A stretch of DNA of 20,305 nucleotides from a virus (lineage: Duplodnaviria > Heunggongvirae > Uroviricota > Caudoviricetes), in the IMG/VR virus record IMGVR_UViG_2695420624_000005; one strand, written 5' to 3'. The position numbers were made by a program, and so were the translations under genes. Numbering within the stretch: the stretch's first letter is position 1; every line of letters starts with the position of its first letter. Shown here piece after piece: positions 1 through 18,887 of the stretch. The notes under the pieces are model-generated. The model was given only the letters and a program-made list of their open reading frames with translations. It did not search any database and was not told the origin of the DNA.

Positions 1-543
1 TCCGTAATCAAACGACGATGTGGTTTTCGTCCCCAAATCCGTACTGGATGCGCTGGCGCTGTGGGTGTGCGATTTAATGCCGTCCTGTTCCTGAGATAAT
101 ACGGCCCGACCACTGGCGGGCTTGCCCTTAATCGTCCAGCCACGCATATCAGGGATCACGCCTGACGGATAAGCAACTGCAAGTTTCGGGTATGCAGATT
201 TGTCAAAAGTCTGCCCCTGCATCAGGGCATAACCAGACGGAACGGTATCTGATGGCCACGGGATTGGTGCACCGACTGGATAAAACTCTGCAGGAGGATG
301 AGCCGAGGTGTAAAGCTGCGCCCACGGCGACCAGTTTGCGTCGGTCGTATCCCGTCGTGAACGAATAAATGCCGGAGCATGAGCACCGCTTGTACCACTC
401 CAGCCGATGAGTAACTCACCTTCGCCAACGGCTGTCATCCCTTTCAGGTGAATGATATTTCCATACGCTGTTGGATATCCGTTGTTATACACCTCGTATA
501 ACTCAAGACCTGCAGCCCCCTGCGTATTGTCTGTCAGCGCGGT
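1..543 (-). pseudogene. Tail fibre protein 3' remnant (no start codon; runs off window start), fused by deletion to the truncated terminase gene
   Basis: Minus-strand frame open from about 545 to the window edge translates to ...[30 protein letters not shown]...[45 protein letters not shown]..., typical of lambdoid side tail fibre C-terminal regions. The frame has a stop immediately upstream and is offset from the gpA frame, so it cannot be translated as a gene. Confidence 0.55.
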
Positions 544-788
544 TAACCGACACGGGCAGACTTCACCACATTCACCTCACGGATGTAGTCGCTGCCCATC
601 GCATTCATGATGGCCCGCTGAAAGGGCAGTGTTTCCCAGCGCCCTTCCTGGTATGCGGATTCTTTCGGGAGATAGTAATTAGCATCCGCCCATTCAACGG
701 CGGTCTGTGGCTCCGGCCTGAACAGTGAGCGAAGCCCGGCGCGGACAAAATGCCGCAGCCTGTTAACCTGACTGTTCGATATATTCAC
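543..788 (-). pseudogene. A: Terminase large subunit (lambda gpA-like), N-terminal 81-codon remnant
   Basis: Translation [81 protein letters not shown] matches the lambda gpA N-terminus as I recall it. The ORF stops at TAA right after ARVG, where full-length gpA (over 600 aa) continues. Start overlaps the 3' end of nu1 as in lambda. Confidence 0.8.
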
Positions 789-1308
789 TCAGCAACCCCG
801 GTATCAGTTCATCCAGCGCGGCTGCTTTGTTCATGGCTTTGATGATATCCCGTTTCAGGAAATCAACATGTCGGTTTTCCAGTTCCGGAAAACGCCGCTG
901 CACCGACAGGGGGATCCCGTCGAGAATACTGGCAATTTCACCTGCGATCCGCGACAGCACGAAAGTACAGAATGCGGTTTCCACCACTTCAGCGGAGTCT
1001 CTGGCATTTTTCAGCTCCTGTGCGTCGGCCTGCGCACGCGTAAGTCGATGGCGTTCGTACTCAATAGTCCCTGGCTGGAGATCTGTCTCGCTGGCCTGCC
1101 GCAGTTCTTCAACTTCCCGGCGCAGCTTTTCGTTCTCAATTTCAGCATCCCTTTCGGCATACCATTTTATGACGGCGGCAGAGTCATAAAGCACCTCATT
1201 ACCCTTGCCACCGCCTCGCAGAACGGGCATTCCCTGTTCCTGCCAGTTCTGAATGGTACGGATACTCGCACCGAAAATGTCAGCCAGCTGCTTTTTGTTG
1301 ACTTCCAT
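763..1308 (-). CDS. nu1: Terminase small subunit Nu1
   Basis: 181 aa ORF, MEVNKKQLADIFGASIRTIQNWQEQGMPVLRGGGKGNEV...SEYIEQSG, essentially the lambda Nu1 sequence (winged-HTH N-terminus); sits about 180 bp from cosN as in lambda. Confidence 0.9.
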   Translation of the reverse strand: MEVNKKQLADIFGASIRTIQNWQEQGMPVLRGGGKGNEVLYDSAAVIKWYAERDAEIENEKLRREVEELRQASETDLQPGTIEYERHRLTRAQADAQELKNARDSAEVVETAFCTFVLSRIAGEIASILDGIPLSVQRRFPELENRHVDFLKRDIIKAMNKAAALDELIPGLLSEYIEQSG

Positions 1309-1485
1309 TGTTCATTCCACGGCCAAAAACAGAGAAAGGAAACGACAGAGGCCCAAAAGCTCGTTTTCAGCACCTGTCGTTTCCTTTCTTTTCAGGGGGT
1401 ATTTTAAATAAAAACATTAAGTTACGACGAAGAAGAACGGAAACGCCTTAAACCGGAAAATTTTCATAAATAGCGAAAACCCGCG

Positions 1486-1497
1486 AGGTCGCCGCCC
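1486..1497. other. cosN cohesive-end site (within a cos region of roughly 1320..1560, with cosB on the nu1 side)
   Basis: Plus strand AGGTCGCCGCCC is the reverse complement of the lambda 12-nt cohesive end GGGCGGCGACCT. The flanking sequence matches the lambda left end (CGCGGGTTTTCGCTATTTATGAAAATTTTCCGG on the minus strand) and right end (plus-strand CGTAACCTGTCGGATC is the reverse complement of the lambda terminal GATCCGACAGGTTACG). Confidence 0.8.
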
Positions 1498-1696
1498 CGT
1501 AACCTGTCGGATCGCCGGAAAGGACCCGCAAAATGATAATAATTATCATCTATATGTCACAACGTGCATCTACGCCATCAAACCACGTCAAATAATCAAT
1601 TATGACGCAGGTATCGTATTAATTGATCTGCATCAACTTAACGTAAAAACAACTTCAGACAATACAAATCAGCGACACTGAATACGGGGCAACCTC

Positions 1697-1891
1697 ATGT
1701 CAACGAAGAACAAAACCCGCAGAACAACAACCCGCAACATCCGCTTTCCTAACCAAATGATTGAACAAATTAACATCGCTCTTGAGCAAAAAGGGTCTGG
1801 GAATTTCTCAGCCTGGGTCATTGAAGCCTGCCGTCGGAGACTAACGTCAGAAAAGAGAGCATATACATCAATCCAAAGTGATGATGGATGA
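1697..1891 (+). CDS. Small hypothetical protein encoded next to cos (64 aa; possibly YlcI/DUF3950-like)
   Basis: 64 aa ORF MSTKNKTRRTTTRNIRFPNQMIEQINIALEQKGSGNFSAWVIEACRRRLTSEKRAYTSIQSDDG; the DNA corresponds to conserved lambda right-end sequence. Family assignment is from memory and uncertain. Confidence 0.45.
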   Translation: MSTKNKTRRTTTRNIRFPNQMIEQINIALEQKGSGNFSAWVIEACRRRLTSEKRAYTSIQSDDG

Positions 1892-2253
1892 ACATCCCGG
1901 TTTCTTCCACCATCGCACCGGAAAAGCGACTATGAGGGTAACCCTGCGTCTGTCAGCACAGTAAAACCCGGTGTGCATCGTTTTTGATTATTCCCGCACA
2001 CTCACGCAGAAGGAATTCCCCGTCGGGCTACGGTCATGGTTAATGCGGGAATACGGCGACGATACAGCGCAGCTAAAAGGGTAATAGACGGATAGACCGG
2101 TTTATTTCATTCCACAGGATTCTGAGTGTCCCCAACTTCCTCCAATAGTCTGAGCGTACACCTATATAGTTTTAATTTTCATCAATCCATTTAACTATCG
2201 TTTAATTGTTGTCACATAGGATTCTGCCGTTTTTAACAATGCAGGATAATAAG

Positions 2254-2547
2254 ATGAAAAAAATGTTGTTTTCTGCCGCTCTGGCAATGCTTATTACAGG
2301 ATGTGCTCAACAGACGTTTACTGTTGGAAACAAACCGACAGCAGTAACACCAAAGGAAACCATCACCCATCACTTCTTCGTTTCGGGAATTGGACAGGAG
2401 AAAACTGTTGATGCAGCCAAAATTTGTGGCGGCGCAGAAAATGTTGTTAAAACAGAAACCCAGCAAACATTCGTAAATGGATTGCTCGGTTTTATTACTT
2501 TAGGCATTTATACTCCGCTGGAAGCGCGTGTGTATTGCTCACAATAA
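2254..2547 (+). CDS. bor: Bor lipoprotein (serum-resistance lipoprotein, lambda Bor family)
   Basis: MKKMLFSAALAMLITGCAQQTFTVGNKPTAVTPKETITHHFFVSGIGQEKTVDAAKICGGAENVVKTETQQTFVNGLLGFITLGIYTPLEARVYCSQ: lipobox ITGC, 97 aa, near-identical to lambda Bor as recalled. The ORF track's longer 113 aa form starts at an upstream ATG. Confidence 0.9.
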   Translation: MKKMLFSAALAMLITGCAQQTFTVGNKPTAVTPKETITHHFFVSGIGQEKTVDAAKICGGAENVVKTETQQTFVNGLLGFITLGIYTPLEARVYCSQ

Positions 2548-2578
2548 TTGCATGAGTTGCCCATCGATATGGGCAGCT

Positions 2579-3040
2579 CTATCTGCACTGCTCATTAATA
2601 TACTTCTGGGTTCCTTCCAGTTGTTTTTGCATAGTGATCAGCCTCTCTCTGAGGGTGAAATAATCCTGTTCAGCGGTGTCTGCCAGTCGGGGGGAGGCTG
2701 CATTATCCACGCCGGAGGCGGTGGTGGCTTCACGCACTGACTGACAGACTGCTTTGATGTGCAACCGACGACGACCAGCGGCAACATCATCACGCAGAGC
2801 ATCATTTTCAGCTTTCGCATCAGCTAACTCCTTCGTGTATTTTGCATCGAGCGCAGCAACATCACGCTGACGCATCTGCATGTCAGTAATTGCCGCGTTC
2901 GCCAGCTTCAGTTCTTTGGCATTTTTGTCGCGCTGGGCTTTATAGGTAATGGCGTTATCACGGTAATGATTAACAGCCCATGACAGGCAGACGATGATGC
3001 AGATAACCAGAGCGGAGATAATCGCGGTTACTCTGTTCAT
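2579..3040 (-). CDS. Rz: Rz inner-membrane spanin (i-spanin)
   Basis: [72 protein letters not shown]... matches lambda Rz (153 aa). Start overlaps the endolysin stop (ATGA). Confidence 0.9.
2638..2820 (-). CDS. Rz1: Rz1 outer-membrane lipoprotein spanin (o-spanin), embedded in the +1 frame of Rz
   Basis: 60 aa [60 protein letters not shown]: lipobox VVGC and a proline-rich tail, fully embedded in Rz as in lambda. Confidence 0.85.
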
Positions 3041-3534
3041 TGCTGACCCCACAAACAGATTTCACGCTCAATCTCACGACGAGTCATGAGACCTTTCCAT
3101 TGCTTACCGCCAGCATATGTCCAGCGACGTAACTGATCACATGCGCCTTTGATATCGCCCTGGTTTATTTTGCGAAGAAGCGTCGATGTTCTGAAATTGC
3201 CAGCACCCACGTTGTAAACGAATGAGTAAAGAGCGCCGCGCGTTGTTTCCGGTATATCGACTTCGATGTATGGGTTAATTTGTCTGGCGACAGTGGCAAG
3301 GTCTTTATTCAAGAGTGCTTTGCATTCTGCTTTGGTATACGTTTTACCGAGCATGATGTCTTTTCCTGTATGCCCGTGACATACGGTCCATACACCAACA
3401 ATATCTTTGTATGGTATGTAGCTGACACCTTCCAGACCATCGTTACCACTTGGGCCAGTGATTAACACTGATGCTATAGCAATTGCTCCGCCACCAATAG
3501 CAGCAGCAACGGCTTTTCGTAATGATGGAGGCAT
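3037..3534 (-). CDS. rrrD: SAR endolysin (phage 21 R21 / RrrD-type lysozyme)
   Basis: 165 aa; N-terminal signal-anchor-release segment [20 protein letters not shown] followed by a lysozyme domain (…VCHGHTG…[17 protein letters not shown]…); matches R21/RrrD as recalled. Start overlaps the holin stop. Confidence 0.85.
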
Positions 3535-3749
3535 TATTCACCTCTCGCAGCCTTGCGCTTATCTTCTTTAATCTTGAAATAAAGGTTTGTCAGGTACGTC
3601 AGCAGGCCAAATACCAGGCTACCCAGCACACCTATTGCTGCCCACTGTGAGGGCGTGACTTTATCGAGCAGCTGTAAAAACCAGTAACCGGCACTACCTG
3701 CTGAGGTGCCATAGGCGACACCCGTTGTTAACTTATCCATGGATTTCAT
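3534..3749 (-). CDS. essD: Pinholin (phage 21 S21 / EssD-type class II holin) with MKSM dual-start motif
   Basis: [71 protein letters not shown], 71 aa with two TMDs; Met1 and Met4 give the antiholin/holin dual start. The ORF track extends to an upstream ATG at 3794, which I consider less likely. Confidence 0.85.
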
Positions 3750-4337
3750 AACCCCACCTCGCAGACAAAGCGGGTGTAAATTGAGGGAATACAACGTATC
3801 GCAAAAAAGCAGAAACGTAACAGACTCGGAGTCAGTGAATAACTCAGGTATTGAGTTATCAGCTAATATCGAGACTCAAAAAATGGAAAAACCAGCTCGA
3901 CGGCGGGTTTAAGCTGTGTGACGAAGTAACCACTCTTAACAGCATAACCAATTTTTTACGTACGTAAACCACTGAATGATATTTATGAGAATGCTACCGA
4001 GTGTTCAAAACACCACCACAAATACATAAGAAAACCTCAACAAATAACCAATAAATAATTTCCGGCGTTATTTTTAGTTAATTTAAATTAAACCATCGAA
4101 TTATAGACCCCCCATAAATAACAGCCATTAATATAAATTAGCTAATAGGTTTATTTTTGTTCAAATAAGAGCCATAAATAGGTTTCGATAGAAAAAGTTC
4201 AGATAAAAATAGAGATCTACTTCACAAATTAAATGAGAAACTAAAACTTACATCTTGAAATAATCACATTGATTAGATGAATATTTATCGCGCAGTGACA
4301 TCATTTTTTAATAATAGTTCAAAAAAAAGGGCTCACG

Positions 4338-5420
4338 ATGAAAAAATTAACAGTGGCAATTTCTGCTGTAGCTGCATCAGTACTGATGGCGATGTCTGCT
4401 CAGGCAGCTGAAATTTATAATAAAGACAGTAACAAGCTGGATCTGTACGGGAAAGTTAATGCTAAGCACTACTTCTCCTCTAATGATGCAGATGATGGTG
4501 ATACTACTTATGCCCGTCTTGGCTTCAAAGGTGAAACCCAAATCAACGATCAACTGACTGGTTTCGGTCAGTGGGAATATGAATTCAAAGGCAACCGCGC
4601 TGAATCTCAAGGTTCCTCCAAAGATAAAACCCGTCTTGCCTTCGCTGGCCTGAAATTCGGTGACTACGGCTCCATCGATTACGGCCGTAACTACGGTGTA
4701 GCATACGACATCGGTGCGTGGACTGACGTCCTGCCAGAATTCGGTGGTGACACTTGGACTCAAACAGATGTGTTCATGACTGGTCGCACCACTGGTGTTG
4801 CAACTTATCGTAACAACGACTTCTTTGGTCTGGTTGATGGTCTGAACTTTGCTGCTCAGTATCAGGGTAAAAATGACCGCACTGACGTAACTGAAGCTAA
4901 TGGTGATGGTTTCGGTTTCTCCACTACTTATGAGTATGAAGGATTCGGTGTAGGTGCAACCTATGCTAAATCTGATCGCACTAATAATCAGGTTATCTAC
5001 GGTAACAACGGTCTGAATGCTTCTGGTCAAAATGCTGAAGTATGGGCAGCTGGTCTGAAATATGATGCGAACAACATCTATCTGGCCACCACCTATTCTG
5101 AAACCCAGAACATGACTGTTTTTGGTAATAACCATATTGCCAACAAAGCACAAAACTTCGAAGCTGTTGCACAATATCAGTTCGACTTCGGCCTGCGTCC
5201 ATCCGTTGCTTACCTGCATTCTAAAGGAAAAGACTTGGGTGTTTGGGGTGATCAGGACCTGGTTGAATATGTTGATGTAGGTGCAACCTATTACTTCAAC
5301 AAAAATATGTCCACTTTTGTTGACTACAAAATCAACCTGATTGATAAGAGCGATTTCACGAAAGCATCTGGCGTTGCTACCGATGATATCGTTGCTGTAG
5401 GTATGGTTTACCAGTTCTAA
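4338..5420 (+). CDS. nmpC: Outer-membrane general porin, NmpC/OmpD (Lc) family, apparently intact
   Basis: 360 aa with signal peptide [29 protein letters not shown], porin motifs throughout and the C-terminal ...VAVGMVYQF. Opposite strand to the surrounding late genes; the preceding roughly 590 bp is very AT-rich. Confidence 0.85.
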
Positions 5421-5556
5421 TTTGATTACTAAAAGATATGTTGTGGGAGGCTTTGCCTCCCCAACATATAAGTGGCTCCCTCAAGCCACTTCCTTTAGAA
5501 GCACAACCTTGCTTCTAACTATACAAACCTTCTGTTATATATTACCCTTTATTTTT

Positions 5557-5582
5557 GGGGGCGTTTCAACGCCCCATTTTTA
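5557..5582 (+). terminator. Intrinsic terminator downstream of nmpC
   Basis: GGGGCG-TTTCAA-CGCCCC hairpin followed by ATTTTTAAT; two further hairpins (GGGAGGC/GCCTCCC near 5446..5462 and AGTGGCT/AGCCACT near 5472..5491) lie between the nmpC stop and the Q stop. Confidence 0.6.
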
Positions 5583-5608
5583 ATAACTTTTAGTAAATAA
5601 TTGGCGTA

Positions 5609-5992
5609 TTAATTAGAGTTATTAACAACGATATCCATCTCTAACCGGATATCTAATGCCATTAACATCCCTTCAATTATGCCCTCAGCCTTCTGTAACC
5701 TTTTCCCGATATAACCATCAGAGCAGCAATGCTTACCTGCCAGTGACATGAATGTCATACCAACTACATAATAATCTACTAATAAATCGTGCAAATCGCT
5801 GTTGTTCTTTTTCAGACGGGCCATGCACCCGCAAATGATCATCGCGTCATCGTCACAACATTGCGGGCGAGATTTTACTTTTGAAGGAATTAATCCCTTA
5901 AAACCGGCGGCAATGGACGACCAGGTCACATCTTCATGATTATTAGCCGCCCACGCTCCCCAACGCTCAAGAACCATCTGAATATCACGCAT
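5609..5992 (-). CDS. quuD: Late-gene antiterminator Q (phage 21/82-type; QuuD-like)
   Basis: [127 protein letters not shown] with a Cys-rich zinc-binding core; position is upstream of the lysis cassette. The ORF track's start at 6007 is an upstream in-frame ATG. Confidence 0.85.
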
Positions 5993-6077
5993 CAACTTAC
6001 TCCACAAAAATCAGACCAGAACGCCAATTACAAGCAAAAATCAATAAAACAGTATTAGTTGATTGTTATCTCTGACT

Positions 6078-6215
6078 TCATACTCCTGCTCCTGTCAGGG
6101 TTTTGGCGTAATTCTTCAGTATTCGGTAATCGGTCAAAACAGAACCGGGGAAACGATATAAGCGCAGACGCCCCCAGCGGTGGCGAAGAAGTTCTGCTAT
6201 ATTAAACTCAAACAT
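6078..6215 (-). CDS. ylcG: Small protein, YlcG-like (45 aa)
   Basis: Hand translation of the minus strand: [45 protein letters not shown], stop at 6078..6080. Its ATG shares a nucleotide with the rusA stop (TGATG). Below the ORF-track size cut-off; name from memory. Confidence 0.45.
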   Translation of the reverse strand: MFEFNIAELLRHRWGRLRLYRFPGSVLTDYRILKNYAKTLTGAGV

Positions 6216-6577
6216 CATTCATTCCCCATTTCGGTGATGGTCAGTTCCAGCCTCCCACCTTTGGTAACAGGCATCTTCACAACGCGGTAATCAACGACCT
6301 GAGCATCATCCAGCCAGAAACCTGCTTTAGTGAGTGCGTCAAAAGCGGCTTTTTGCAGATTATCCAGGTCACGGCGACGGCGATCCGGCATGTGGCACTC
6401 AATGCGGATTTTCACAGGCATAGCCAGGCCGATATCCAGCATTGCGCTTTTAATGATTCGGGCGACGTTATCGCGGTATGCCTGCCCCTCTGCACTGACG
6501 TGCGTGCGCCCGCGATTATGGCGGTAATAGCGATTATTGCTCGGAGGCCAGGGTAATGTGATACTGTAGGTATTCAC
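6215..6577 (-). CDS. rusA: Holliday-junction resolvase RusA
   Basis: 120 aa [51 protein letters not shown]...[31 protein letters not shown], the RusA sequence as I recall it. Confidence 0.9.
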
Positions 6578-6864
6578 GCCTTAATAACCCCCTCTTTCAG
6601 CCAGATAACCTGTGTTCTCGCCATACCTTCCAGCGCGCATTCTTTTGCATATGCAGCATCGACAAAATGTGTGCGGCGGTCGATTTCGTCGTGGCAGGCA
6701 GAACATGCAATGGTGGCAATCAGGTCTGGCGGTTTGATACCGGTACCGCACAATCCAGCCAGCCGGATATGTGCCAGTACAGACGTTTCAGAATTGCCAT
6801 TACATACGCCAGGGATTCTTACCTGGCATTCCCGACCACGCGCTGCTTTTCTCAAATCAGCCAT
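6574..6864 (-). CDS. ybcO: YbcO-like protein (DUF1364, Cys-rich putative nuclease)
   Basis: [67 protein letters not shown]...; start ATG lies 3 nt from the ninE stop and the stop overlaps the rusA start. Confidence 0.75.
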
Positions 6865-7027
6865 GATTCCTCCTTGCTGCCAGTCGCAACCATTTTTTAT
6901 CAACCAGGCTAGCGGTATATCCGAGCAGTGTTGGTATTTCGGATGGCTTCAGCTCAGGCTTACGCTTACGACGATTTGATACTCTGTAGATGTGTCCGTT
7001 CATGACACGAATAAGCGGTGTAGCCAT
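6857..7027 (-). CDS. ninE: NinE
   Basis: Hand translation: [56 protein letters not shown] (56 aa). Its ATG overlaps the ybcN stop (TAA at 7027..7029). Confidence 0.7.
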   Translation of the reverse strand: MATPLIRVMNGHIYRVSNRRKRKPELKPSEIPTLLGYTASLVDKKWLRLAARRNHG

Positions 7028-7482
7028 TACGCCTCCTGCTTGTCGCGGAGCAGCTGGAACTCGCAGCTCTGCGGAATAGTCAGGTGGCAGCCAATATTCA
7101 CCGCCCAGGCTTCAACCTTACACAGGAAGACATACATCTCTCCGGTATCAAGATCGGAGGTATGGCGTAACGACTGGATAGTGGTGATATCACCGGTTAC
7201 GACATCAACCAGGTCTTTGGTTTCATAACCGAGATATGTGTGTTTGAGAGCATCTTTTACCCAAGCTGGAGTGGCGAACGTTTTACCCCTGCTGATGAGG
7301 TATTCACTGATTTCGCTGTACCACATGTGGCTGAGTGCATTCTGGGAAAGACTGCGTTTCTCACGCCACGGTTTAAGCACCATGCGAAAGCATTTGCCCT
7401 CCTCCAGATAAGGCTGGATCTGCCGACCGATAGCGGTGAAGTTGCCGCGATGTAATTTGATGCCGTCTTGTGAGAGGTTCAC
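7027..7482 (-). CDS. ybcN: YbcN-like protein (nin-region protein; reported as a DNA base-flipping protein)
   Basis: 151 aa, GTG start preceded by GGAGGTG; [62 protein letters not shown]... Confidence 0.75.
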
Positions 7483-7696
7483 GCTTCACCTCCGCAGAGG
7501 TCAAACGCTAGATGCAAAGAATTGCAGGTGCATTTCTGCATCTGTGAAGGGAGAAGAGAGTTTGGATTGTATGTGCGCATAAACGTCCCCGTTTAGCGCA
7601 GAAGTCACCGGAGTTGTTCAGGCTCCGGTGACATAATTATGCCGTGTTGATTTCCCAAAATCAAAATCGATAGAATTGCTCCTTCTTAAAACACTT

Positions 7697-8494
7697 TTAC
7701 TCTCTGGAAGCTTTTCTTATCTCTCTTGGTGTTATATTAAAACGATTATGAAATCTTTCAGTAAAACGAGAAGGACACTTATAACCATTTTCTCTGGCAA
7801 TCTCGCTTATAGGTTTTACCGTCGTTTGTATAGCAGACAACGCATTATTTAACCTCACATCGTCCAGTATACTTTGGAAACTTACCCCCTCGCTTGCTAG
7901 ACGGCGATGTAATGTAGAAACAGAAATGTAGAGATATCGAGCAACCTTGTTTGCTGTCCATTTTGTGCCGGGTTCGGATAGCAGCAGGTTATAACAACGA
8001 CTTATCAATGATTGTTTACTATATGATAAAAGTAAATGATTAACATGATTCACTCCTAACGAAAGTAGAACGCCCATTGCTAAGTGCTCCTGAATTTTAG
8101 TTGAGAAGCCTCGGGAAACAGATGTTTTTAGTTGCTCCCAACAATATATTAACTCAGGATTCTGAGGTAAAAAGAAACTTGTTTTGTTACGTATTTGATC
8201 AGTTACCGTATAAAGTTTTTGGAAACTCTCAATTAAATCAATGGGTAAGTAAAGCATTTCTGCAAGATAAAGCCCTGCTTCAGGATAATTCTCAATATAA
8301 AATTCATAACCACAAGGAAATAATATTATTTGATTATTATCAACAGTTAAAGTATGCGTCTCCCAATTGATAACTTTCTTTCCCTGACGGATACGACACA
8401 AAGCTGGCATAAGAGGCTTAACCCTATGAATCTCATGATGTTTATGCATCCGTATTTCTTCGATCTTTAAGTTAGTCTTACCTCTTGCCAGCAT
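7697..8494 (-). CDS. ybcM: AraC/XylS-family transcriptional regulator (YbcM-like)
   Basis: 265 aa; C-terminal AraC-type HTH (…[82 protein letters not shown]…); the gene is visibly AT-rich. Confidence 0.8.
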
Positions 8495-8503
8495 ACTCTC
8501 ACC

Positions 8504-9055
8504 CTACTTTATCTCATAAACTGGTGTTATCTCAGCGGTTGCGATTTTATTAGCATTAAGCATATAACCAACTAACGCTCCGCTGGAGTTAGAATCTACA
8601 GGAATCTTTTCAGTTTTTAGAGCCCATACTTTAAACTGGTAATGATGTGGTTTATCTCCTTTAGGAGGACATGCGCCACCAAACCCAGCATAGCCAAAAT
8701 CATTTCGGCCTTGAACAGCACCAGTCGGCAGTTTTGTTCCATCACGTCTCCCTGCATCAACGGGCAAATATGTTATTGTTGCTGGAATATTAACAACAGT
8801 CCAATGCCACCAACCACTGCCTGTAGGTGCATCTGGATCATATACAGTTACGGCAAAGCTTTTGGTACCTTCAGGAACACCAGACCAGGTTAATGAGGGC
8901 GATGTATTACCACCTTCACACCCAAATCCAGAAAAGACATGAGACGTTGTAAGTTGCTCTCCTGTTTTTATTTCATTACTAGTGACCTGAAATGCTGCAG
9001 CCTGCGCAGAAAATGTTATGAATGCCAATACAGTTGAAACGATAAGTGTTTTCAT
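8504..9055 (-). CDS. ybcL: Periplasmic PEBP/RKIP-family protein (YbcL-like)
   Basis: 183 aa with signal peptide MKTLIVSTVLAFITFSAQA; PEBP-like motifs (…VYDPDAPTGSGWWHWTVVNIP…GACPPKGDKPHHYQFKVWAL…). Confidence 0.8.
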   Translation of the reverse strand: MKTLIVSTVLAFITFSAQAAAFQVTSNEIKTGEQLTTSHVFSGFGCEGGNTSPSLTWSGVPEGTKSFAVTVYDPDAPTGSGWWHWTVVNIPATITYLPVDAGRRDGTKLPTGAVQGRNDFGYAGFGGACPPKGDKPHHYQFKVWALKTEKIPVDSNSSGALVGYMLNANKIATAEITPVYEIK

Positions 9056-9519
9056 AAAAACCTCTTTGTTATGACCTATCGTTATTTTATTTGATATTCC
9101 TTTATCTCATTATGCATAAAGGCGCAATGTTTATGCAAAAGCAATCACAATTGTACCCCCAACCCAATTATTTGCCACAATATACACAAAGCACATTGAT
9201 ACTATCTAAAAACTCTGCTTTATTATTAGTAATACCTACGAAAGTCGGTGTTATTTTTTAACCTACCATTCAAAATACGTGACATACACCATTTTGCTCA
9301 TAATAATTTGTCACGTATTTTCAGTATTTGAATCTGCGACCAAGAGTTCTCACCTAACAAATGATTAAGATTGTATAGCTCATTTACTACCCCAATACAG
9401 CCGTACAAAACTCGCTTGTGGGAGCAAACAAAGTAATTACCCATTAAGTTTCGTCAAAGATAATTAATTCTGTCTTGCACTTTATCACCATAGCATAACT
9501 TAAAATCCGAGATCATTAT

Positions 9520-11046
9520 TTAGAAATAAATCTCACCATCAACCATATATTTGAGAGCACTTATCGCCTGCTGGGCGGATATTACTTTCATTAAAGGATA
9601 GTGTTTAAAAACAATGCCATTCATAAAATAGATATCACAGGTTTTATTATCCGTATTAATTATGATTTTTTCGAATGTTTTATAGGCAAGTGTACGGCAT
9701 AACTCTCGTCCATTTTTACTGGTTAAGTCAATAGCATAAAAATCACTGAATGAATTTACACCTTTACTCTTCAAAGTTTTCAATGATACCGAAGCCCTTC
9801 GTAATTCCTTATCTAATAGTCTTATTTTCTCTGCTATAGCGGTAACTTCAGGCGCGACAGACAATGCAACGATTAAATTATTAATTTTCATCTGAAGCTC
9901 AATAATTTTTAACTCTAAAGTTTAATTAGCATCTTTCTTGTTTTCAACTGGTTGAATTTTGCTACAATTAAAAAGCAATTCATTAATGATATTATAATCA
10001 ACCAAATCTCTTTTTATTGATGGCCTGTCACATCGATGTAATCTTCTCATCGGACAAACATAATAGCCATGCAAACTTCCAGATACCGCATGAACAATCA
10101 TGGTATTACCACAAGCCTCACACTTCATAACTGTTCGAAGTAGATTTATTAGCATAGGATTCTTGCTACTATTGCTAATACCAAAAGGTGCCAACCGAAT
10201 TTCCTGTACAGCGTAAAACAAATCATCTGATATAACTCTGGGATAATAGCCAGCGATTTCACTTATCCCTTTCCCTCTTGCACGATATGAAGGTACGCAT
10301 ATACCTATCAGAGCTTTATTCGCTAATAATTTTTCAATTACAGAAGGTCCCCATGCACTTTCTTTTCCTGAGAAATTCTTTACAGCATGATCATTTAAAT
10401 ACTTGGCTATTGCATTCAATGAGCGCCTTTCCATCCTGAGTTTAAAAATTAGCTCAATAGTTTTCACCCTGTCGGGGTCTGGAACAAAAGCCGTTCTTTT
10501 GTCATCTAAGGAGAGCCATCTCGGACAAGACGCCGTCATAATCGTACCTGATTCCATTGCATCCTGCCGTTTTTTCTTCCATGATAATTTAACCCGACTT
10601 GACTTTATCTCGCTTTCTTCATTTGCCCTTTGTGCTATAAGTATGGCTTTTATTAATGAATATGGCTCATTCAAAGAGTCAATATTATAGACTGTATTGT
10701 CGCAAAGAGTTATAACATCAATACCGTGATTCAAAATCAATTTCAGACGTTCAATCGCTTCACCGACTTTTTCTCTTGAAAGTCTGTCCAGACTTTCAAC
10801 TAACAATGTAGTTCCTGGCAATATATAACCATGCTCTATAGCATCTAAAAATTCCGAAAAAGCTCCTGATTGTGCATGCTTTCCTTTGAATGCACTTAAT
10901 CCTAAATCTTCATATGTTATGGTATCAAGATAATAATCACTATTTACCTTTAACCATTCAGCAATAAGTCTTCTCTGTCGGTTTAATGAGTCACCAGACA
11001 TCTGACCTGGTGATGAAAATCGCATATATGCTATGGCTTTTTTCAT
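9520..11046 (-). pseudogene. ybcK: Large serine recombinase (YbcK-like) split by a single in-frame TAA into 374-codon and 123-codon ORFs
   Basis: ORFs 9922..11046 (resolvase-type N-terminus MKKAIAYMRFSSPGQ…, recombinase domain, Cys-rich zinc-ribbon region) and 9520..9891 are in the same frame, separated by the TAA at 9922..9924 plus 10 sense codons. Read through, the total is 508 codons. Confidence 0.6.
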
Positions 11047-11300
11047 GGTGACACCTGCTAACGTATGCTTTTATAAACCTTAGTGGTGGGATATAATTTT
11101 TGTTTAATTTTTATTTAAAAAGACAATTAAGGTCACATTATCTTGAATATACAACAATAATCGTATTGCAATTTTCTTACGCCATAATCTTGAAAGCACA
11201 AAAGAATACATAAAAAATAAAGACATTAACAAAAAGCATAAAACGAGGCTCATATAAATATAAGAGCCTCCATATTTTAGTCGTTTAGAAACAAATTATT

Positions 11301-11636
11301 TTAATGTGGTGTGCTTCGTGACAATAAATTAATAACCAACACACCGGCACAAATCAACATCATACCTATAATGGCTGGCAGGTCCAGCCGTTGGCCGAAA
11401 AATCCCCATGACAGTAAACTAATCAGGACAATACCGACTCCTGACCAGATAGCATAAGCAATCCCTGTAGGAATATAAGCCAGCGTCTGAGCTAATAACC
11501 AGAATGATGCACAATAACAAATAATTGTACCAACAGATGGCCATAACCGTGTAAAACCTTCTGAAAACTTCATTAAGGTTGTACCAATGACCTCTGCAAG
11601 TATTGCACCACCAAGATAAATATAAGGGTTCATAGC
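11301..11636 (-). CDS. emrE: Small multidrug resistance (SMR) efflux transporter EmrE
   Basis: MNPYIYLGGAILAEVIGTTLMKFSEGFTRLWPSVGTIICYCASFWLLAQTLAYIPTGIAYAIWSGVGIVLISLLSWGFFGQRLDLPAIIGMMLICAGVLVINLLSRSTPH, 110 aa with four TMDs and the catalytic Glu14. The ORF track's 128 aa form uses an upstream ATG. Confidence 0.9.
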   Translation of the reverse strand, partial: AMNPYIYLGGAILAEVIGTTLMKFSEGFTRLWPSVGTIICYCASFWLLAQTLAYIPTGIAYAIWSGVGIVLISLLSWGFFGQRLDLPAIIGMMLICAGVLVINLLSRSTPH

Positions 11637-11700
11637 ATATTCTTTCCTGTTCAAACTGGAGAGAATTGTACTACAGTTTGAACTCAACTCACCTGTTTCA

Positions 11701-12003
11701 TCATTGTGTTCCCATTGATGTTCTTTTATATACCCTCAATACCCGTTTCATCGCGGCACTCTGGCGACACTCCTTAAAAATCAGATTCGTGCTCACCTTT
11801 CCTTCCCGTTCTTCTCTGGTAGCGAACCGGTAATACACCGTTCGCCAGACCTTACCATCAACGACCAGGATTCCTGCCCGCGCCATTTTAGCCGCAGCCT
11901 GATTTATGCTGGTTACGGTTGCGCCTGTTACCGCGGCAACGTCCTGTGCACAGAAGCTCTTATGCGTCCCCAGGTAATGAATAATTGCCTCTTTGCCCGT
12001 CAT
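11701..12003 (-). CDS. ren: Ren (Rex-exclusion) protein
   Basis: MTGKEAIIHYLGTHKSFCAQDVAAVTGATVTSINQAAAKMARAGILVVDGKVWRTVYYRFATREEREGK... resembles lambda Ren; start overlaps the P stop. Confidence 0.8.
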   Translation of the reverse strand: MTGKEAIIHYLGTHKSFCAQDVAAVTGATVTSINQAAAKMARAGILVVDGKVWRTVYYRFATREEREGKVSTNLIFKECRQSAAMKRVLRVYKRTSMGTQ

Positions 12004-12701
12004 ACACTTGCTCCTTTCAGTCCGAACTTAGCTTTAATTTCTGCGATCTTCGCCAGAGCCTGTGCACGATTTAGAGGTCTACCGCCCATAACAGGAAGTT
12101 GTTTTACTGGTTCAGGTATCGTCTCACCACGGTTAATTCGCGCTGTCATACAGGTCAGTTCATCGGCAGCCTTGCGCCGTAATTCCGCGTCAGTCAGCGC
12201 ATTGGCCCGCATGTTCTGGTACAAGTTGGTAACCAACCAGTAATGCGCGTTCGATTTCCACGGATAAGACTCTGCATCCGGATACAGGCCACGCTTCCGG
12301 CAATACTCGTAAACCATATCAACCAGCTCGCTGACGTTTGGCAGCCCGGCGTTAACAGATGCTTCTTCCCGGCACCAGGCGACAAACTGCCCGGGTGATG
12401 GCAGGAATGGTCGATTCTGCCGACGGGCTACGCGCATTCCAGCGTTAACCTGTTCCATTGTGGTGATCCCGTTTTCCCGGAAAGCCAGAACCCACTGGCG
12501 GCGGATTTCGTTCAGTTCATTCTGGTCACGGTTAGCCAGGCTCGCCGGGAAAGTTGCCAGTAACTGGCTTAACACACCGTTGATGATCTGCGCTACCTGC
12601 TGTACCTGTGGCTTTTCGTCGTACTGTTCCGGCATGTTGTTGGCGATCCGGCGCATCTGCTCACAGTCAAAGTTAACCATCTGTGCGGCGATGTTTTTCA
12701 T
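12000..12701 (-). CDS. P: Replication protein P (DnaB helicase loader)
   Basis: 233 aa MKNIAAQMVNFDCEQMRRIANNMPEQYDEKPQVQQVAQIINGV...KAKFGLKGASV, near-identical to lambda P as recalled; start overlaps the O stop. Confidence 0.9.
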   Translation of the reverse strand: MKNIAAQMVNFDCEQMRRIANNMPEQYDEKPQVQQVAQIINGVLSQLLATFPASLANRDQNELNEIRRQWVLAFRENGITTMEQVNAGMRVARRQNRPFLPSPGQFVAWCREEASVNAGLPNVSELVDMVYEYCRKRGLYPDAESYPWKSNAHYWLVTNLYQNMRANALTDAELRRKAADELTCMTARINRGETIPEPVKQLPVMGGRPLNRAQALAKIAEIKAKFGLKGASV

Positions 12702-14283: not shown

Positions 14284-14517
14284 TTAGGCGGCAGAATTAC
14301 TCGCGTTAAACAATGGTGCGAGGTCGGGACGAATATCTGCTGGTTTAATCTTTCCACCAGTGGCTGAGACAATTTTCATTACATAGCGGGCATCAATTCC
14401 GCCACCGTGTAGCCAACGCCAAACTGTGGGTTGGGCTACACCGCATAGATCTGCCAGTCGTTTTTGACTACCTGTAATACTGATTGCGAGTTGAATGGTT
14501 TGATTTGTCATTATCAA
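14284..14517 (-). CDS. cro: Cro-like repressor (YdaS/Cro HTH family)
   Basis: 77 aa with HTH SQKRLADLCGVAQPTVWRWLHGG; divergent from cI across an operator-bearing intergenic region. Confidence 0.7.
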   Translation of the reverse strand: MIMTNQTIQLAISITGSQKRLADLCGVAQPTVWRWLHGGGIDARYVMKIVSATGGKIKPADIRPDLAPLFNASNSAA

Positions 14518-14621
14518 TTCCTATTGGTATTGCAATGAATGAATAATAGCAATGCGTATTAATCCAAGCAATAGCAAAACGTGTTTTGACCATCAATACG
14601 CAAGCGTATAAATTAAAACTT
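14518..14621. promoter_or_regulatory. Immunity-region control region: PR (for cro), PRM (for cI) and OR operators
   Basis: Minus strand PR: -35 TTGCTT (plus 14565..14570), 17-bp spacer, -10 TATTAT (plus 14542..14547). Plus strand PRM: -35 TTGACC (14586..14591), 17-bp spacer, -10 TAAATT (14609..14614), placing the start at or next to the cI ATG. Operator-like 16-mers AATAGCAATGCGTATT (14544..14559) and AATACGCAAGCGTATA (14595..14610); only a weak half-site lies between them. Confidence 0.55.
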
Positions 14622-15314
14622 ATGAAAAAAGAAACTCTTGCTGATCGCTTAAACCTAGCGATGGAACAATCTGGAATGTCTCAAGGCGCTCTTGCAAAGG
14701 CGTCTGGCGTAGCTCAACCCACAATCTGGAGACTGACAAGCGGCAACGCTCGCGGCTCAACAAAAATTGTTGAAATAGCTAATGCATTGGGTGTTCGAAC
14801 AGAATGGCTCTCATCAGGCATAGGCCCGATGAGAAATGACGGTCAACAATCAGGGAAGCCTGCTGTCAGCCATTCAAAATACTTCAAAATTGACGTTCTT
14901 GATATAGAAGTCAGTGCCGGGCCGGGAGTCATCAACCGTGAGTTTGTAGAAGTTCTACGCTCGGTTGAGTACTCGTTTGACGATGCTCGTCACATGTTCG
15001 ATGGTAGGAAGGCAGAAAATATCCGCATCATTAACGTACGCGGTGACAGCATGTCAGGAACGATCGAACCAGGTGATCTTCTGTTCGTTGATATCACGGT
15101 TAAATCTTTCGACGGTGATGGTATCTATGCGTTTCTGTATGACGACACAGCCCATGTAAAGCGCCTGCAAATGATGAAGGATAAGCTGCTAGTTATCTCT
15201 GATAACAAGAGCTACTCACCGTGGGACCCGATCGAGAAAGACGAGATGAACCGGGTATTCATCTTCGGGAAAGTCATCGGAAGCATGCCGCAGACGTATA
15301 GGAAGCATGGGTAG
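14622..15314 (+). CDS. cI: CI-type prophage repressor (N-terminal HTH plus LexA-like S24 autopeptidase domain)
   Basis: From the ATG at 14622: MKKETLADRLNLAMEQSGMSQGALAKASGVAQPTIWRLTSG… and C-terminal …RGDSMSGTIEPGDLLFVD…HVKRLQ (Ser/Lys dyad). The ORF track's TTG start at 14586 seems less likely. Confidence 0.85.
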   Translation: MKKETLADRLNLAMEQSGMSQGALAKASGVAQPTIWRLTSGNARGSTKIVEIANALGVRTEWLSSGIGPMRNDGQQSGKPAVSHSKYFKIDVLDIEVSAGPGVINREFVEVLRSVEYSFDDARHMFDGRKAENIRIINVRGDSMSGTIEPGDLLFVDITVKSFDGDGIYAFLYDDTAHVKRLQMMKDKLLVISDNKSYSPWDPIEKDEMNRVFIFGKVIGSMPQTYRKHG

Positions 15315-15425
15315 TGAAGGACGTGTCAACTCTATTTTGTAAGCTATCCAGACTCACAGTTGCAGATCGACGAGTAACTTACATACAGCACAAAAAAACA
15401 ATATGCACGTGCTTTTAGACTAGAC

Positions 15426-15440
15426 TTACCATAATGGTAA
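15426..15440. promoter_or_regulatory. 15-bp perfect palindrome TTACCAT-A-ATGGTAA overlapping the first ATG of the toxin gene (candidate antitoxin operator)
   Basis: Read directly from sequence; MqsA antitoxins are known to bind ACCT…AGGT-type palindromes in their own promoters, and this site has an ACCA…TGGT core. Confidence 0.4.
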
Positions 15441-15844
15441 CAAGTATGATTCTTAGCAGATATGTGGGAACTCCTCCCCGTGATGGCGAGGACAGAAAGA
15501 TTCAAGGTGGTCCGCTTTATTTAGATATCATTGATTTGATTGATGAATGTGACACACTGCCTTGGACTAGACGGTGTATCAGGGATGTTCAATCGCTTTC
15601 TTTAGATGCAGATGACATCAAATCTATGGTGATAAAAGCAGTCACTAAAGGGAGATTTCTAGGTTCAGAATGGTGTCAAGGCAGTAAACCAGGTGTATGG
15701 GCAGCTTGTGATGCTTATAGCTTTGAGCACTCATTTTGGTGCCAAGCTATGCATAAAGAACTTAATAACGAGTTCTACATTAAATTTTTTGTAAACATTA
15801 CTGGCAATGTAGTGCTTACAGTATCTCTTCATCTCTCTAATTGA
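15434..15844 (+). CDS. MqsR-family toxin (putative mRNA interferase) with an N-terminal extension; start codon uncertain (15434 or 15446)
   Basis: C-terminal region …LSLDADDIKSMVIKAVTKGRF…FYIKFFVNITGNVVLTVSLHLSN resembles MqsR (…LGLDFDGMCNVIIGLSESDF…VYLKITVIHDVLIVSFKEK, from memory). Toxin gene precedes the antitoxin gene as in mqsRA. Confidence 0.6.
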   Translation: MVTSMILSRYVGTPPRDGEDRKIQGGPLYLDIIDLIDECDTLPWTRRCIRDVQSLSLDADDIKSMVIKAVTKGRFLGSEWCQGSKPGVWAACDAYSFEHSFWCQAMHKELNNEFYIKFFVNITGNVVLTVSLHLSN

Positions 15845-15868
15845 GTGATGATAAATGAGGATTTTTAT

Positions 15869-16456
15869 ATGAGAAACAACAACATATGTCCAGTTTGTGG
15901 TGTAGGTCATCTCACCGTGGAGATGGAGTATGATGATGTTACTTATAAAGGGGAAACAAAAAATCTCCCAATAAGGTTTTCTGTGTGTGATCAATGTGGT
16001 TCGGAAACTGCCACACCAGTCGATTTACGAGAAAACAAACGAATTTTCAATGAATACAAAAAGTCTATCGATGGACTTTTAACAGGAAAAGAATTAAAAA
16101 AAATTAGAACTGAAGTATGGATGATAACCCAGCAAAAGGCATCCTCTATATTTGGTGGGGGGCCTAAGGCATTTTCCAAGTATGAATCTGATGATGTCAT
16201 TCAATCAGAAGCAATGGATAAACTGATGCGTTTAGCAGCAGAAGTTCCTGATGCATTCAAAAGGTTACGGGAATTATCTGGCGAAATCAAAGTTGAAAGA
16301 ACAGTCTCATCATCTAAATCTTTACCTATATGGAAACCTGAAGCAAAAGCACAATTTGAAAACGATGATCAGGGATTTGACAGCAAATCACCAGCCCAAA
16401 CAAAAATGAATCAAACATCAATAAAGATAAAAACTGTTGCTAAGCGGGTAGCATGA
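15869..16456 (+). CDS. MqsA-family antitoxin (zinc-ribbon plus XRE-HTH) with a C-terminal extension of roughly 65 aa
   Basis: Preferred start is the ATG at 15869 (GAGGA 8 nt upstream); the ORF track starts at the GTG at 15845. N-terminal CPVC…CDQC zinc ribbon; HTH …LTGKELKKIRTEVWMITQQKASSIFGGGPKAFSKYE… matches MqsA …LTQKEASEIFGGGVNAFSRYE…; low-complexity tail after about residue 135. Confidence 0.75.
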   Translation: MRNNNICPVCGVGHLTVEMEYDDVTYKGETKNLPIRFSVCDQCGSETATPVDLRENKRIFNEYKKSIDGLLTGKELKKIRTEVWMITQQKASSIFGGGPKAFSKYESDDVIQSEAMDKLMRLAAEVPDAFKRLRELSGEIKVERTVSSSKSLPIWKPEAKAQFENDDQGFDSKSPAQTKMNQTSIKIKTVAKRVA

Positions 16457-16956
16457 TGAATGAACTTCTTAGATCAGCAATAGACGCATTATCAATAATG
16501 CATATCAATATCAGAGAATCTAACTTTGCTTTTTCTGAAGGGTATAATAGCTTTAACTTCAACAGCATAAATAAGCAAACACAATCATTTCGTAAGATAA
16601 AAAAAATCGAAGCTATTGAATTAGTAAGTGACGATGACTCATTAAAAAATGAGCTATATTACTCTTTTCACTACTCAGTTGGGCTTAGATTTATTGCAAA
16701 ATCCGAAGAAACATCTAAAGACGAAAATGATGTTGATACAATTTTTTCTATAGAAGCAATTTTTGAGGCGATATATCGCTCAAAGAGAGAATTATCTAAA
16801 GAAGAGTTAGAAGAATTTGCTAAGCAAAATGTAGGTTTTAATGTATGGCCTTTTTGGCGAGAGTATGTTCAAAACAGCACATCCAGAATGGGAATTACTA
16901 CAATAGCTATACCATTCTTTAAATTCAATAAATCAGACATACCTTCATTAGATTAA
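16453..16956 (+). CDS. SecB-like chaperone (predicted third component of a toxin-antitoxin-chaperone module)
   Basis: 167 aa; start overlaps the antitoxin stop (ATGA). C-terminal half …DTIFSIEAIFEAI…FNVWPFWREYVQNSTSRMGITTIAIPFFKF resembles E. coli SecB …FLCEVQQGGIFSIAGIEG…[30 protein letters not shown] (from memory). Size matches SecB (about 155 aa). Confidence 0.55.
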   Translation: MMNELLRSAIDALSIMHINIRESNFAFSEGYNSFNFNSINKQTQSFRKIKKIEAIELVSDDDSLKNELYYSFHYSVGLRFIAKSEETSKDENDVDTIFSIEAIFEAIYRSKRELSKEELEEFAKQNVGFNVWPFWREYVQNSTSRMGITTIAIPFFKFNKSDIPSLD

Positions 16957-16970
16957 ATTCAAATATAACT

Positions 16971-16997
16971 CCCGGCTACCGTGCCGGGTTTTCTTTT
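16971..16997 (+). terminator. Intrinsic terminator ending the cI/TAC transcription unit
   Basis: CCCGGC-TACCGT-GCCGGG hairpin followed by TTTTCTTTT, 15 bp after the stop of the SecB-like gene. Confidence 0.7.
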
Positions 16998-17119
16998 GCC
17001 CTCCCCCCATCACACAAACCGTTCAAAAAACCACCACGACCTCACTTCAGTTATCGCTATGCGATGCAAGTCACAAAATTAATTCTTTTTGCTATCAAAC
17101 ATTTAATATCAAAACACAT

Positions 17120-17170
17120 CAACTAATAGCAATAAGCATTGATATCACCAATAGCAATAGCTATTATCAC
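17120..17170 (+). promoter_or_regulatory. PL-like promoter with OL operators
   Basis: -35 TTGATA (17139..17144), 17-bp spacer, -10 TATTAT (17162..17167). The perfect 16-bp palindrome AATAGC-AATA-GCTATT (17150..17165) overlaps the spacer and -10; a second related 16-mer AATAGCAATAAGCATT lies at 17124..17139. Same half-site family as in OR. Confidence 0.6.
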
Positions 17171-17273
17171 CATATCGCAACAACACAACGATACGGCAAC
17201 CACCTGATTCACCGTTGCGATGACCGCTTAGATCCGCAGCTTGAATTTCAGCAGGCTTCGGGGAGTGCGAGGG

Positions 17274-17651
17274 ATGAAACGGACGCGTGAACGTCGGTGT
17301 GACCAGCTGAAATCAACTCAACATTTCATACCTTAGTCGCTTCAACGAGGCGGCTTAGTTATGACAACCGGCGGCCATCCACCGCCTGAATACGCGCAGA
17401 AGTCTTTATATGTTCAGCAGCCCAGCTTACGGGCAGGAGTTTTTATGGTTCATCAACATTACGGAACGCAGACCGTTAATCGCGGTGCGGTCATGCCAGG
17501 AATGCTGGTCAAACGCAAAGATGGTACCTGGACTGCATCAGCTAATTTACACGGACGACTTTATCTGCATCGCGGCATTGAGCGCACTTATACCCGTGAC
17601 TTGCTCGTGGAAGTTTTTCTCGACGGACGCGGCAACGGTCTGAATCACTAA
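17274..17651 (+). pseudogene. Candidate N-like antiterminator frame interrupted by an in-frame TAG (20-codon Arg-rich peptide, then a 96-codon ORF at 17361..17651)
   Basis: 17274..17336 encodes MKRTRERRCDQLKSTQHFIP followed by TAG; the same frame continues into the 96 aa ORF whose C-terminus …RLYLHRGIERTYTRD… loosely resembles the lambda N C-terminus …RTWYSKPGERGITCSG…. Position is right after PL/OL. Weak evidence. Confidence 0.3.
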
Positions 17652-17726: not shown

Positions 17727-18887
17727 ATGAACGCTTATTACATTCAGGATCGTCTTGAGGCTCAGAGCTGGGCGCGTCACTACCAGCAGATCGCCCGTGA
17801 AGAGAAAGAGGCAGAACTGGCAGACGACATGGAAAAAGGCCTGCCCCAGCACCTGTTTGAATCGCTATGTATCGATCATTTGCAACGCCACGGGGCCAGC
17901 AAAAAAGCCATTAAAGAGTTTGGATTAGGCAGAGACAGGCGAATCGCAATCACTGAAGCTATACAGGCCAACATTGAGTTATTTTCAGGACACAAACACA
18001 AGCCTCTGACAGCGAGAATCAACAGTGATAATTCCGTTACGTTACATTCATGGCTTGATCGCTACGAAAAAATCCTGGCCAGCAGAGGAATCAAACAGAA
18101 GACACTCATAAATTACATGAGCAAAATTAAAGCAATAAGGAGGGGTCTGCCTGATGCTCCACTTGAAGACATCACCACAAAAGAAATTGCGGCAATGCTC
18201 AATGGATACATAAACGAGGGCAAGGCGGCGTCAGCCAAGTTAATCAGATCAACACTGAGCGATGCATTCCGAGAGGCAATAGCTGAAGGCCATATAACAA
18301 CAAACCCTGTCGCTGCCACTCGCGCAGCAAAATCAGAGGTAAGGAGATCAAGACTTACGGCTGACGAATACCTGAAAATTTATCAAGCAGCAGAATCATC
18401 ACCATGTTGGCTCAGACTTGCAATGGAACTGGCTGTTGTTACCGGGCAACGAGTTGGTGATTTATGCGAAATGAAGTGGTCTGATATCGTAGATGGATAT
18501 CTTTATGTCGAGCAAAGCAAAACAGGCGTAAAAATTGCCATCCCAACAGCATTGCATGTTGATGCTCTCGGAATATCAATGAAGGAAACACTTGATAAAT
18601 GCAAAGAGATTCTTGGCGGAGAAACCATAATTGCATCTACTCGTCGCGAACCGCTTTCATCCGGCACAGTATCAAGGTATTTTATGCGCGCACGAAAAGC
18701 ATCAGGTCTTTCCTTCGAAGGGGATCCGCCTACCTTTCACGAGTTGCGCAGTTTGTCTGCAAGACTCTATGAGAAGCAGATAAGCGATAAGTTTGCTCAA
18801 CATCTTCTCGGGCATAAGTCGGACACCATGGCATCACAGTATCGTGATGACAGAGGCAGGGAGTGGGACAAAATTGAAATCAAATAA
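17727..18887 (+). CDS. int: In-frame gam'-'int fusion: first 62 codons of GamS joined to lambda integrase from about residue 34 to the C-terminus
   Basis: [60 protein letters not shown] matches the short form of lambda Gam; from …[46 protein letters not shown]… to …[28 protein letters not shown] the protein matches lambda Int. The GamS RBS (AGGAG) is retained upstream. No xis, bet or exo is present. Confidence 0.8.

Follow-up and report, generated by a model that had tools for sequence, protein, structure and literature searches.

Which system is encoded by the three small genes lying directly behind the repressor gene in the prophage record IMGVR_UViG_2695420624_000005 of IMG/VR, and what might it do for a lysogen? 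The record was analysed over its whole length of 20,305 nt, hereafter referred to as the window. An original prediction, made from the letters alone, had read the genes as a toxin-antitoxin-chaperone (TAC) cassette with MqsR-, MqsA- and SecB-like products, placed where lambda carries rexAB and serving in phage defence. The analysis described here leads, with a probability of about 90%, to the conclusion that the cassette is the anti-phage TAC system MqsRAC, present as a moron where lambda has rexAB, in a lambdoid prophage next to ybhC in Escherichia coli. The MqsRAC system is already known, since a published fragment, readable over 379 nt, and six published primers match the window exactly; judged by sequence, the cassette is a rediscovery, being the same wherever the published sequence can be read.

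The 379 readable nucleotides of the "MsqRAC gene fragment" correspond exactly to window positions 15346-15724, and the gene-specific parts of all six mqsR, mqsRA and mqsC primers are found exactly at the borders of the open reading frames (ORFs), namely at 15446, 15821-15844, 16439-16456, 16453 and 16934-16956 (fragment and primers: Table S8 of Vassallo et al. 2022, Nat Microbiol, PMC9519451). The DNA of the published system, E. coli C496_10 MqsRAC, is identical to the window over every comparable stretch, gene order and gene sizes are alike, and the two possibly differ in one residue, Pro157 of the window MqsA. According to the first paper (PMC9519451), cells are rescued from the toxicity of C496_10 MqsR only when MqsA and MqsC are both supplied; protection is robust against T2, does not extend to T4, and is abolished by extra MqsC. 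A 10^5-fold gain in cell viability under attack by T2 has been measured, and Fernandez-Garcia et al. 2023 (Microbiol Spectr, PMC10783111) found the efficiency of plating of T2 lowered by 2,100- to 5,000-fold with the same plasmid. The expected function in phage defence has thus already been documented for the matching cassette. The system is plasmid-borne in these two papers, and a position behind cI is not described in their accessible sections.

The three genes are located on the + strand at 15434-15844, 15869-16456 and 16453-16956, between the prophage cI gene and an OL/PL-like region, as had been predicted. The second of them encodes a protein of 195 aa which scores 113.2 bits on TIGR03830 (cut-off 61.8) and 63.8 bits on PF15731 (cut-off 30) and possesses both a CxxC...CxxC zinc ribbon and an XRE-type helix-turn-helix (HTH) domain, and is thus a member of the MqsA family, with the domains named in the original prediction. 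When the window protein was aligned with eight MqsA proteins encoded beside homologues of the toxin and with MqsA of E. coli K-12, four cysteines were invariant and the HTH core read GGG..AFS.YE. The gene starts at the ATG at 15869, with GAGGA 8 nt upstream; the GTG at 15845, which opens the mechanically called ORF, was rejected on the basis of the ribosome-binding site, the RefSeq annotation and the start of the homologues.

As the match to the Pfam MqsA profile stops at residue 134 of 195, a C-terminal tail of 61 residues remains (residues 135-195, encoded at 16271-16453; an extension of roughly 65 had been estimated), which all nine TAC-linked MqsA proteins share and K-12 MqsA lacks. One aromatic position within the tail is conserved (Trp or Phe; the Trp of LPIW in the window), and six of the nine tails terminate with VA or AA, Val-Ala being the end of the window protein; by sequence the tail can be regarded as a ChAD-like extension. 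Two residues past the conserved tryptophan the window protein has Pro157, encoded with C at 16337, whereas each of the 18 complete E. coli genomes that contain the cassette has T and Ser157; this is the sole base at which the window departs from all 18. Serine is also found at this position in the homologue from a Klebsiella phage. The P157 allele is rare: in a large collection the exact window MqsA occurs on nine contigs, and the exact toxin and the exact chaperone occur on at least 1,000 contigs each.

The third gene codes for a protein of 167 aa with the SecB fold, whose closest structure is the TAC chaperone Rv1957, and a SecB-like chaperone is therefore present in the same operon. A search of the cassette with PADLOC returned only a weak match to PD-T4-9_C (E 7.3e-4), a homologous SecB-like chaperone. 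The mqsC start overlaps the mqsA stop as ATGA at 16453-16456, another feature already noticed in the first reading of the sequence, and the two genes are shown here to be translationally coupled. A toxin gene, an mqsA gene and a third gene coding for 127-170 aa are adjacent and co-oriented in all nine loci inspected (the window, L003, L004 and L006 to L011). With 113 bits for ORF2 on TIGR03830 and this order kept in nine of nine loci, the three-gene arrangement is not a matter of chance.

The toxin gene, ORF1, codes for 136 aa and is named "hypothetical protein" in RefSeq, which, like the published constructs, starts it at 15446 (MILSRY...), giving the 132-aa form that was cloned and shown to be toxic. 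Nearly all homologues begin with MV(T/N)(S/N)-x-I/V-S (alignment A1), which favours the ATG at 15434 as the start; no recognisable Shine-Dalgarno sequence is present at either 15434 or 15446. ORF1 alone gave no significant match in Pfam, NCBIfam, PADLOC, PHROGs or the PDB sequences. MqsR was not found among the PDB sequences with phmmer of ORF1 or with a profile of 35 sequences, and hhalign of the toxin family against the single K-12 MqsR sequence gave a probability of 1.1%. Homologues of ORF1 in a large protein collection numbered 56; 10 of the 35 aligned members match PF15723 (MqsR_toxin) below the threshold, the best of them at 25.4 bits vs the cut-off of 26.2, and the sequence that we take to be K-12 MqsR, used for comparison, scores 120 bits on the same profile. 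Profile searches, one of the checks proposed with the original prediction, were positive for ORF2, where MqsA was found above the cut-offs, and stayed below the threshold for the ORF1 family. The other check was structural, and it returned the MqsR fold for ORF1 and the SecB fold for ORF3: the AlphaFold model of ORF1, built from the alignment, has a pLDDT of 93.3, and MqsR is by far its best structural match, with nearly the full length aligned. According to this model ORF1 is an MqsR-fold toxin, a member of MqsR (RelE superfamily) as the first reading had suggested, from a clade just beyond the boundary of the Pfam family.

The same clade has features of its own: the N-terminus is extended by a conserved stretch of about 30 residues, and W76, C77, D89, Y91, K113, S127 and H129 (132-aa numbering) are invariant. 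The positions of K56 and Q68 of K-12 MqsR, which have been proposed to be catalytic, are occupied by G and A in our own sequence alignment, and this suggests that equivalents of these two residues are not conserved in the clade. Invariant D, Y, K and H residues are particular to the clade. With the Pfam threshold missed as well, RNase activity of the toxin is an assumption here.

These observations also bear on the idea that the toxin represents a separate RelE-superfamily clade and not an MqsR-type, GCU-specific, ribosome-independent mRNase, perhaps one that is ribosome-dependent or that cleaves tRNA or rRNA. The N-terminal extension, the invariant residues, the G and A at the K56 and Q68 positions, the failure of every family member to reach the Pfam cut-off and the empty profile search against the PDB sequences all speak for it. 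It is nevertheless considered unlikely, as MqsR is by far the best structural match over almost the whole length of the protein, the partner is a bona fide MqsA, and the toxin is treated as MqsR in the literature. A wider form of the idea, in which the toxin would belong to a TAC-restricted clade with an MqsR-like fold and distinct biochemistry, and S157P could in addition retune chaperone binding and the range of triggering phages, is put forward only tentatively. If the toxin clade were distinct, its target or cleavage rule would differ from those of the GCU-specific RNase assumed in the literature.

With the toxin taken as MqsR-like, the following course of events can be proposed for the cassette as an MqsRAC defence system. 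In the lysogen it would be transcribed from the repressor promoter by read-through, from a promoter of its own upstream, or from both, and MqsA would bind and neutralise the MqsR-like toxin. The ChAD tail is expected to be prone to aggregation and degradation, and MqsA would be functional only as long as the tail is held by MqsC. When a sensitive phage such as T2 infects the cell, MqsC would be claimed by a competing phage product, a step for which a chaperone acting as phage sensor in HigBAC (with lambda gpV) and in CmdTAC provides a mechanistic precedent. MqsA would then be lost, probably through degradation by ClpXP directed by its Val-Ala end, an analogy drawn from M. tuberculosis HigA1, where Val-Ala serves as the degron for ClpXP; in HigBAC it is the aromatic ChAD residues that bind the chaperone (Mets et al. 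2024). Once free, the toxin, presumably a RelE/MqsR-fold RNase that cleaves mRNA, would shut down translation, and the phage yield would collapse through abortive infection or induced dormancy.

Regarding expression, no + strand terminator was found between cI and ORF1. The published fragment, which begins at 15346, is active in the promoterless vector pCV1 from its own 88 nt upstream (Vassallo 2022, PMC9519451; PMC10783111), and in PMC10783111 the inhibition of T2, confirmed as strong, is said to be "from its natural promoter". From the activity of this fragment we infer a dedicated promoter within 15346-15433, so that the spacer 5' of the toxin gene (15315-15433, + strand) probably bears the cassette's own promoter; given the terminator-free gap, read-through from PRM may also contribute to transcription in the lysogen. 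The sole promoter-like match upstream, at 15421-15450, is weak, overlaps the start codon and was not accepted as the cassette promoter. An autoregulatory MqsA box of the K-12 style is likewise unsupported: no inverted repeat is present in 15300-15450, and the only ACCT-N(2-4)-AGGT site in the window is at 3696, far from the cassette.

Several of the facts must be counted against the interpretation as an MqsRAC defence system of the native prophage. Identity to the C496_10 construct was verified only over the 379 nt and the primer sites, and the window MqsA carries Pro157 in place of the serine of all 18 genomes. The toxin family stays below the PF15723 cut-off and has G and A where K-12 MqsR has K56 and Q68, leaving RNase activity assumed. 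Both the titration of MqsC by a T2 protein, that is, the T2 trigger, and the expression of the cassette in its native prophage are points that we infer. Lastly, the outcome of T2 attack is interpreted in PMC10783111 as persistence or dormancy together with McrBC restriction and not as suicide or abortive infection.

The persister-like survivors after T2 attack reported in that paper (PMC10783111) would also suit a stress-responsive growth regulator or persistence switch without a specific phage sensor, for which infection would be one of many stresses depleting the chaperone or the antitoxin, and TAC systems were indeed first described as stress-responsive. Against this, protection is phage-specific, being directed at T2 and not T4 in PMC9519451, the chaperones of HigBAC and CmdTAC recognise defined phage structural proteins, and a mobile-element context is frequent among the homologous loci, five of which lie behind cI. 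Such a switch therefore appears improbable, and a phage-triggered MqsRAC remains the preferred interpretation.

The position of the cassette was examined together with its neighbours. The gene upstream (14622-15314, + strand) codes for a cI-type repressor with HTH_3 (PF01381, E 1.5e-06) and Peptidase_S24 (PF00717, E 1.5e-18) domains, labelled as an XRE family regulator in RefSeq and as cI in the annotation of phage PhiR70_1. Divergent from it is a cro-like gene on the - strand (14284-14517), and the OR-like cI-cro intergenic region (14517-14585) contains repeats and operator-like matches of the AATAGCAAT type at 14517-14578. On the other side of the cassette, the OL/PL-like operator-promoter region (17078-17170, + strand) contains AATAGCAAT repeats shared with the OR region and a promoter-like site at 17139-17167 (TTGATA-17-TATTAT) with a score of 10/12. 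The window has only three exact copies of AATAGCAAT, of which two lie in 17078-17170 and one between cI and cro; with one mismatch allowed there are 19 matches in the window vs 8.6 expected. A motif common to both regions is the expected OR/OL signature, which supports the assignment of 17078-17170 as OL/PL on sequence grounds and, thereby, the rexAB position of the cassette. The cassette is accordingly situated between cI and OL/PL and is co-oriented with cI, in agreement with the slot first proposed for it.

The original prediction had also stressed the AT-rich composition of the cassette and its dedicated terminator. Its GC content is 35.5% vs 46.6% for cI and 45-49% for the flanks, and an intrinsic terminator is found at 16971-16997 (+ strand), with a 6-bp all-GC hairpin, CCCGGC-loop-GCCGGG, followed by the T-run TTTTCTTTTG. 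The hairpin itself (16971-16988) has T-runs on both strands, reads as a terminator in both directions and could also stop read-through from the opposite side.

Following the OL/PL-like region is a kil homologue at 17361-17651 (phrog_294, E 4.3e-37). No N (or Nun) gene is present from the PL-like promoter to the kil homologue (17170-17651), where the loci L006 and L008 have an N_peptide gene. As the N gene is absent, a put-like antitermination RNA was sought in the 190-nt leader between PL and kil and was dropped, with no match in Rfam and a folding z of -0.09.

Among 5,426 complete E. coli genomes, 18 contain the 1,686-bp cassette stretch at 99.8% identity or higher, each with a single, chromosomal copy; the temperate Escherichia phage PhiR70_1 has it at 99.9% and Klebsiella phage 2b LV-2017 at 75%. 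In five loci, namely the window, L003 (Klebsiella phage 2b LV-2017), L006, L008 and L009, the cassette lies directly 3' of an HTH and S24 repressor gene, with cro, cII, O and P on the other side of the repressor and N, cIII, kil or recombination genes after the cassette. The toxins of the other four loci are 35-70% identical to that of the window, and the N-terminal, DNA-binding part of the Klebsiella phage cI is unlike that of the window cI, so the slot recurs among divergent lambdoid prophages. In the GenBank record of the Klebsiella phage the homologous cassette (4053-5569) is wholly unannotated, and the cI-like gene, an intact ORF of 240 aa, is entered only as a 123-aa fragment.

The window itself represents a lambdoid prophage whose nin region is DLP12-like and whose integration site in the E. 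coli chromosome adjoins ybhC. Positions 1-12700 contain the nin region with cargo of the DLP12 type (the ybcK recombinase, ybcL, ybcM, ybcN, ybcO, emrE and rusA), and these genes are colinear with those of PhiR70_1 and of the locus annotated in E. coli E2. At 17727-18887 there is an ORF of 386 aa in which the first 64 residues of Gam are fused to a lambda-type integrase lacking the start of the arm-binding domain; both halves are marked as pseudogenes in RefSeq. In PhiR70_1 the same interval holds gam, bet, exo, several small ORFs, xis and int, and comparison with this gene set points to a deletion from gam to int in the window prophage, which is presumably unable to excise.

That bet, exo and xis are lost and gam and int fused, yet cI and the cassette are intact, is what might be expected of an addiction or stabilisation module which keeps a (defective) prophage in place by killing or arresting the cells that lose it, the defence on a plasmid being a side effect. 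Toxin-antitoxin modules classically stabilise mobile DNA, and some distant homologues stand beside integrases and transposases, as the homologous cassette of L011 does. As the main role of the cassette this is nonetheless highly improbable: defence against T2 was measured directly, with the 10^5-fold effect on viability and the drop in plating of about 2,100- to 5,000-fold, the slot behind cI is known to house defence functions (RexAB, HigBAC), and segregation seldom leads to the loss of a prophage present in one chromosomal copy.

Taking the cassette as an MqsRAC defence system, its closest counterpart by position is HigBAC of E. coli NT1F31 (Mets et al. 2024), likewise a TAC borne by a lambdoid prophage, where it occupies the variable defence locus 3' of cI, the rexAB slot; its chaperone is SecB-like and its ChAD tail contains aromatic residues. 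The HigBAC chaperone senses lambda gpV, which competes with the aromatic ChAD residues (Mets et al. 2024). The location behind the repressor and the chaperone as phage sensor, which the original prediction had singled out as notable, were therefore both published already. HigBAC differs from the window cassette in its HigB/HigA pair, in lambda gpV as the trigger, in targeting siphoviruses and in the end of its antitoxin, which is Leu-Pro and ClpXP-independent, whereas the window antitoxin ends with Val-Ala. Lambda RexAB shares the slot between cI and OL/PL and is an exclusion function expressed in the lysogen, but the proteins are unrelated and the mechanism is that of a membrane-depolarising two-protein system.

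Other TAC systems resemble the window cassette in composition. The MqsRA-SecB TAC of V. cholerae RC385 (Bordes et al. 2016, PMC5105189) is a validated chaperone-addicted MqsRA system, and its published toxin primer encodes MVNNAIN..., an N-terminus typical of the window toxin family; it comes from another host and is divergent in sequence, and neither a phage-defence test nor a prophage context was found in the available parts of that paper. CmdTAC (PD-T4-9) is another defence TAC of three genes, and its SecB-like chaperone, an excess of which blocks CmdTAC defence, is homologous to that of the window; its toxin, however, is an mRNA ADP-ribosyltransferase, its antitoxin is unrelated, its place is a hotspot of P2-like prophages, and the phage it protects against is T4. 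M. tuberculosis HigB1-HigA1-Rv1957 is unlike the window in having a HigBA pair on an actinobacterial chromosome and a role described as stress response. MqsR/MqsA of E. coli K-12, finally, is a two-component, chaperone-free system without a ChAD tail; K-12 MqsR has 98 aa and no N-terminal extension, and the K-12 MqsA box is not present near the window cassette.

The finding holds little new biology, as the system, its chaperone dependence, its activity against T2 and the slot downstream of cI as a TAC-bearing defence locus have all been published. The additions made here are minor and comprise the recurrence of the slot in five lambdoid loci, the toxin clade outside the Pfam MqsR boundary and the rare S157P allele. 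The case can serve as a calibration point in which a TAC module and its rexAB-slot context were correctly recognised from sequence alone. Annotation pipelines will miss MqsRAC, because RefSeq gives "hypothetical protein" and neither PADLOC v2, which has no MqsRAC model, nor Pfam recognises the toxin. The cassette accompanies cI genes that differ in immunity type, in E. coli, in Klebsiella and in three further lambdoid loci.

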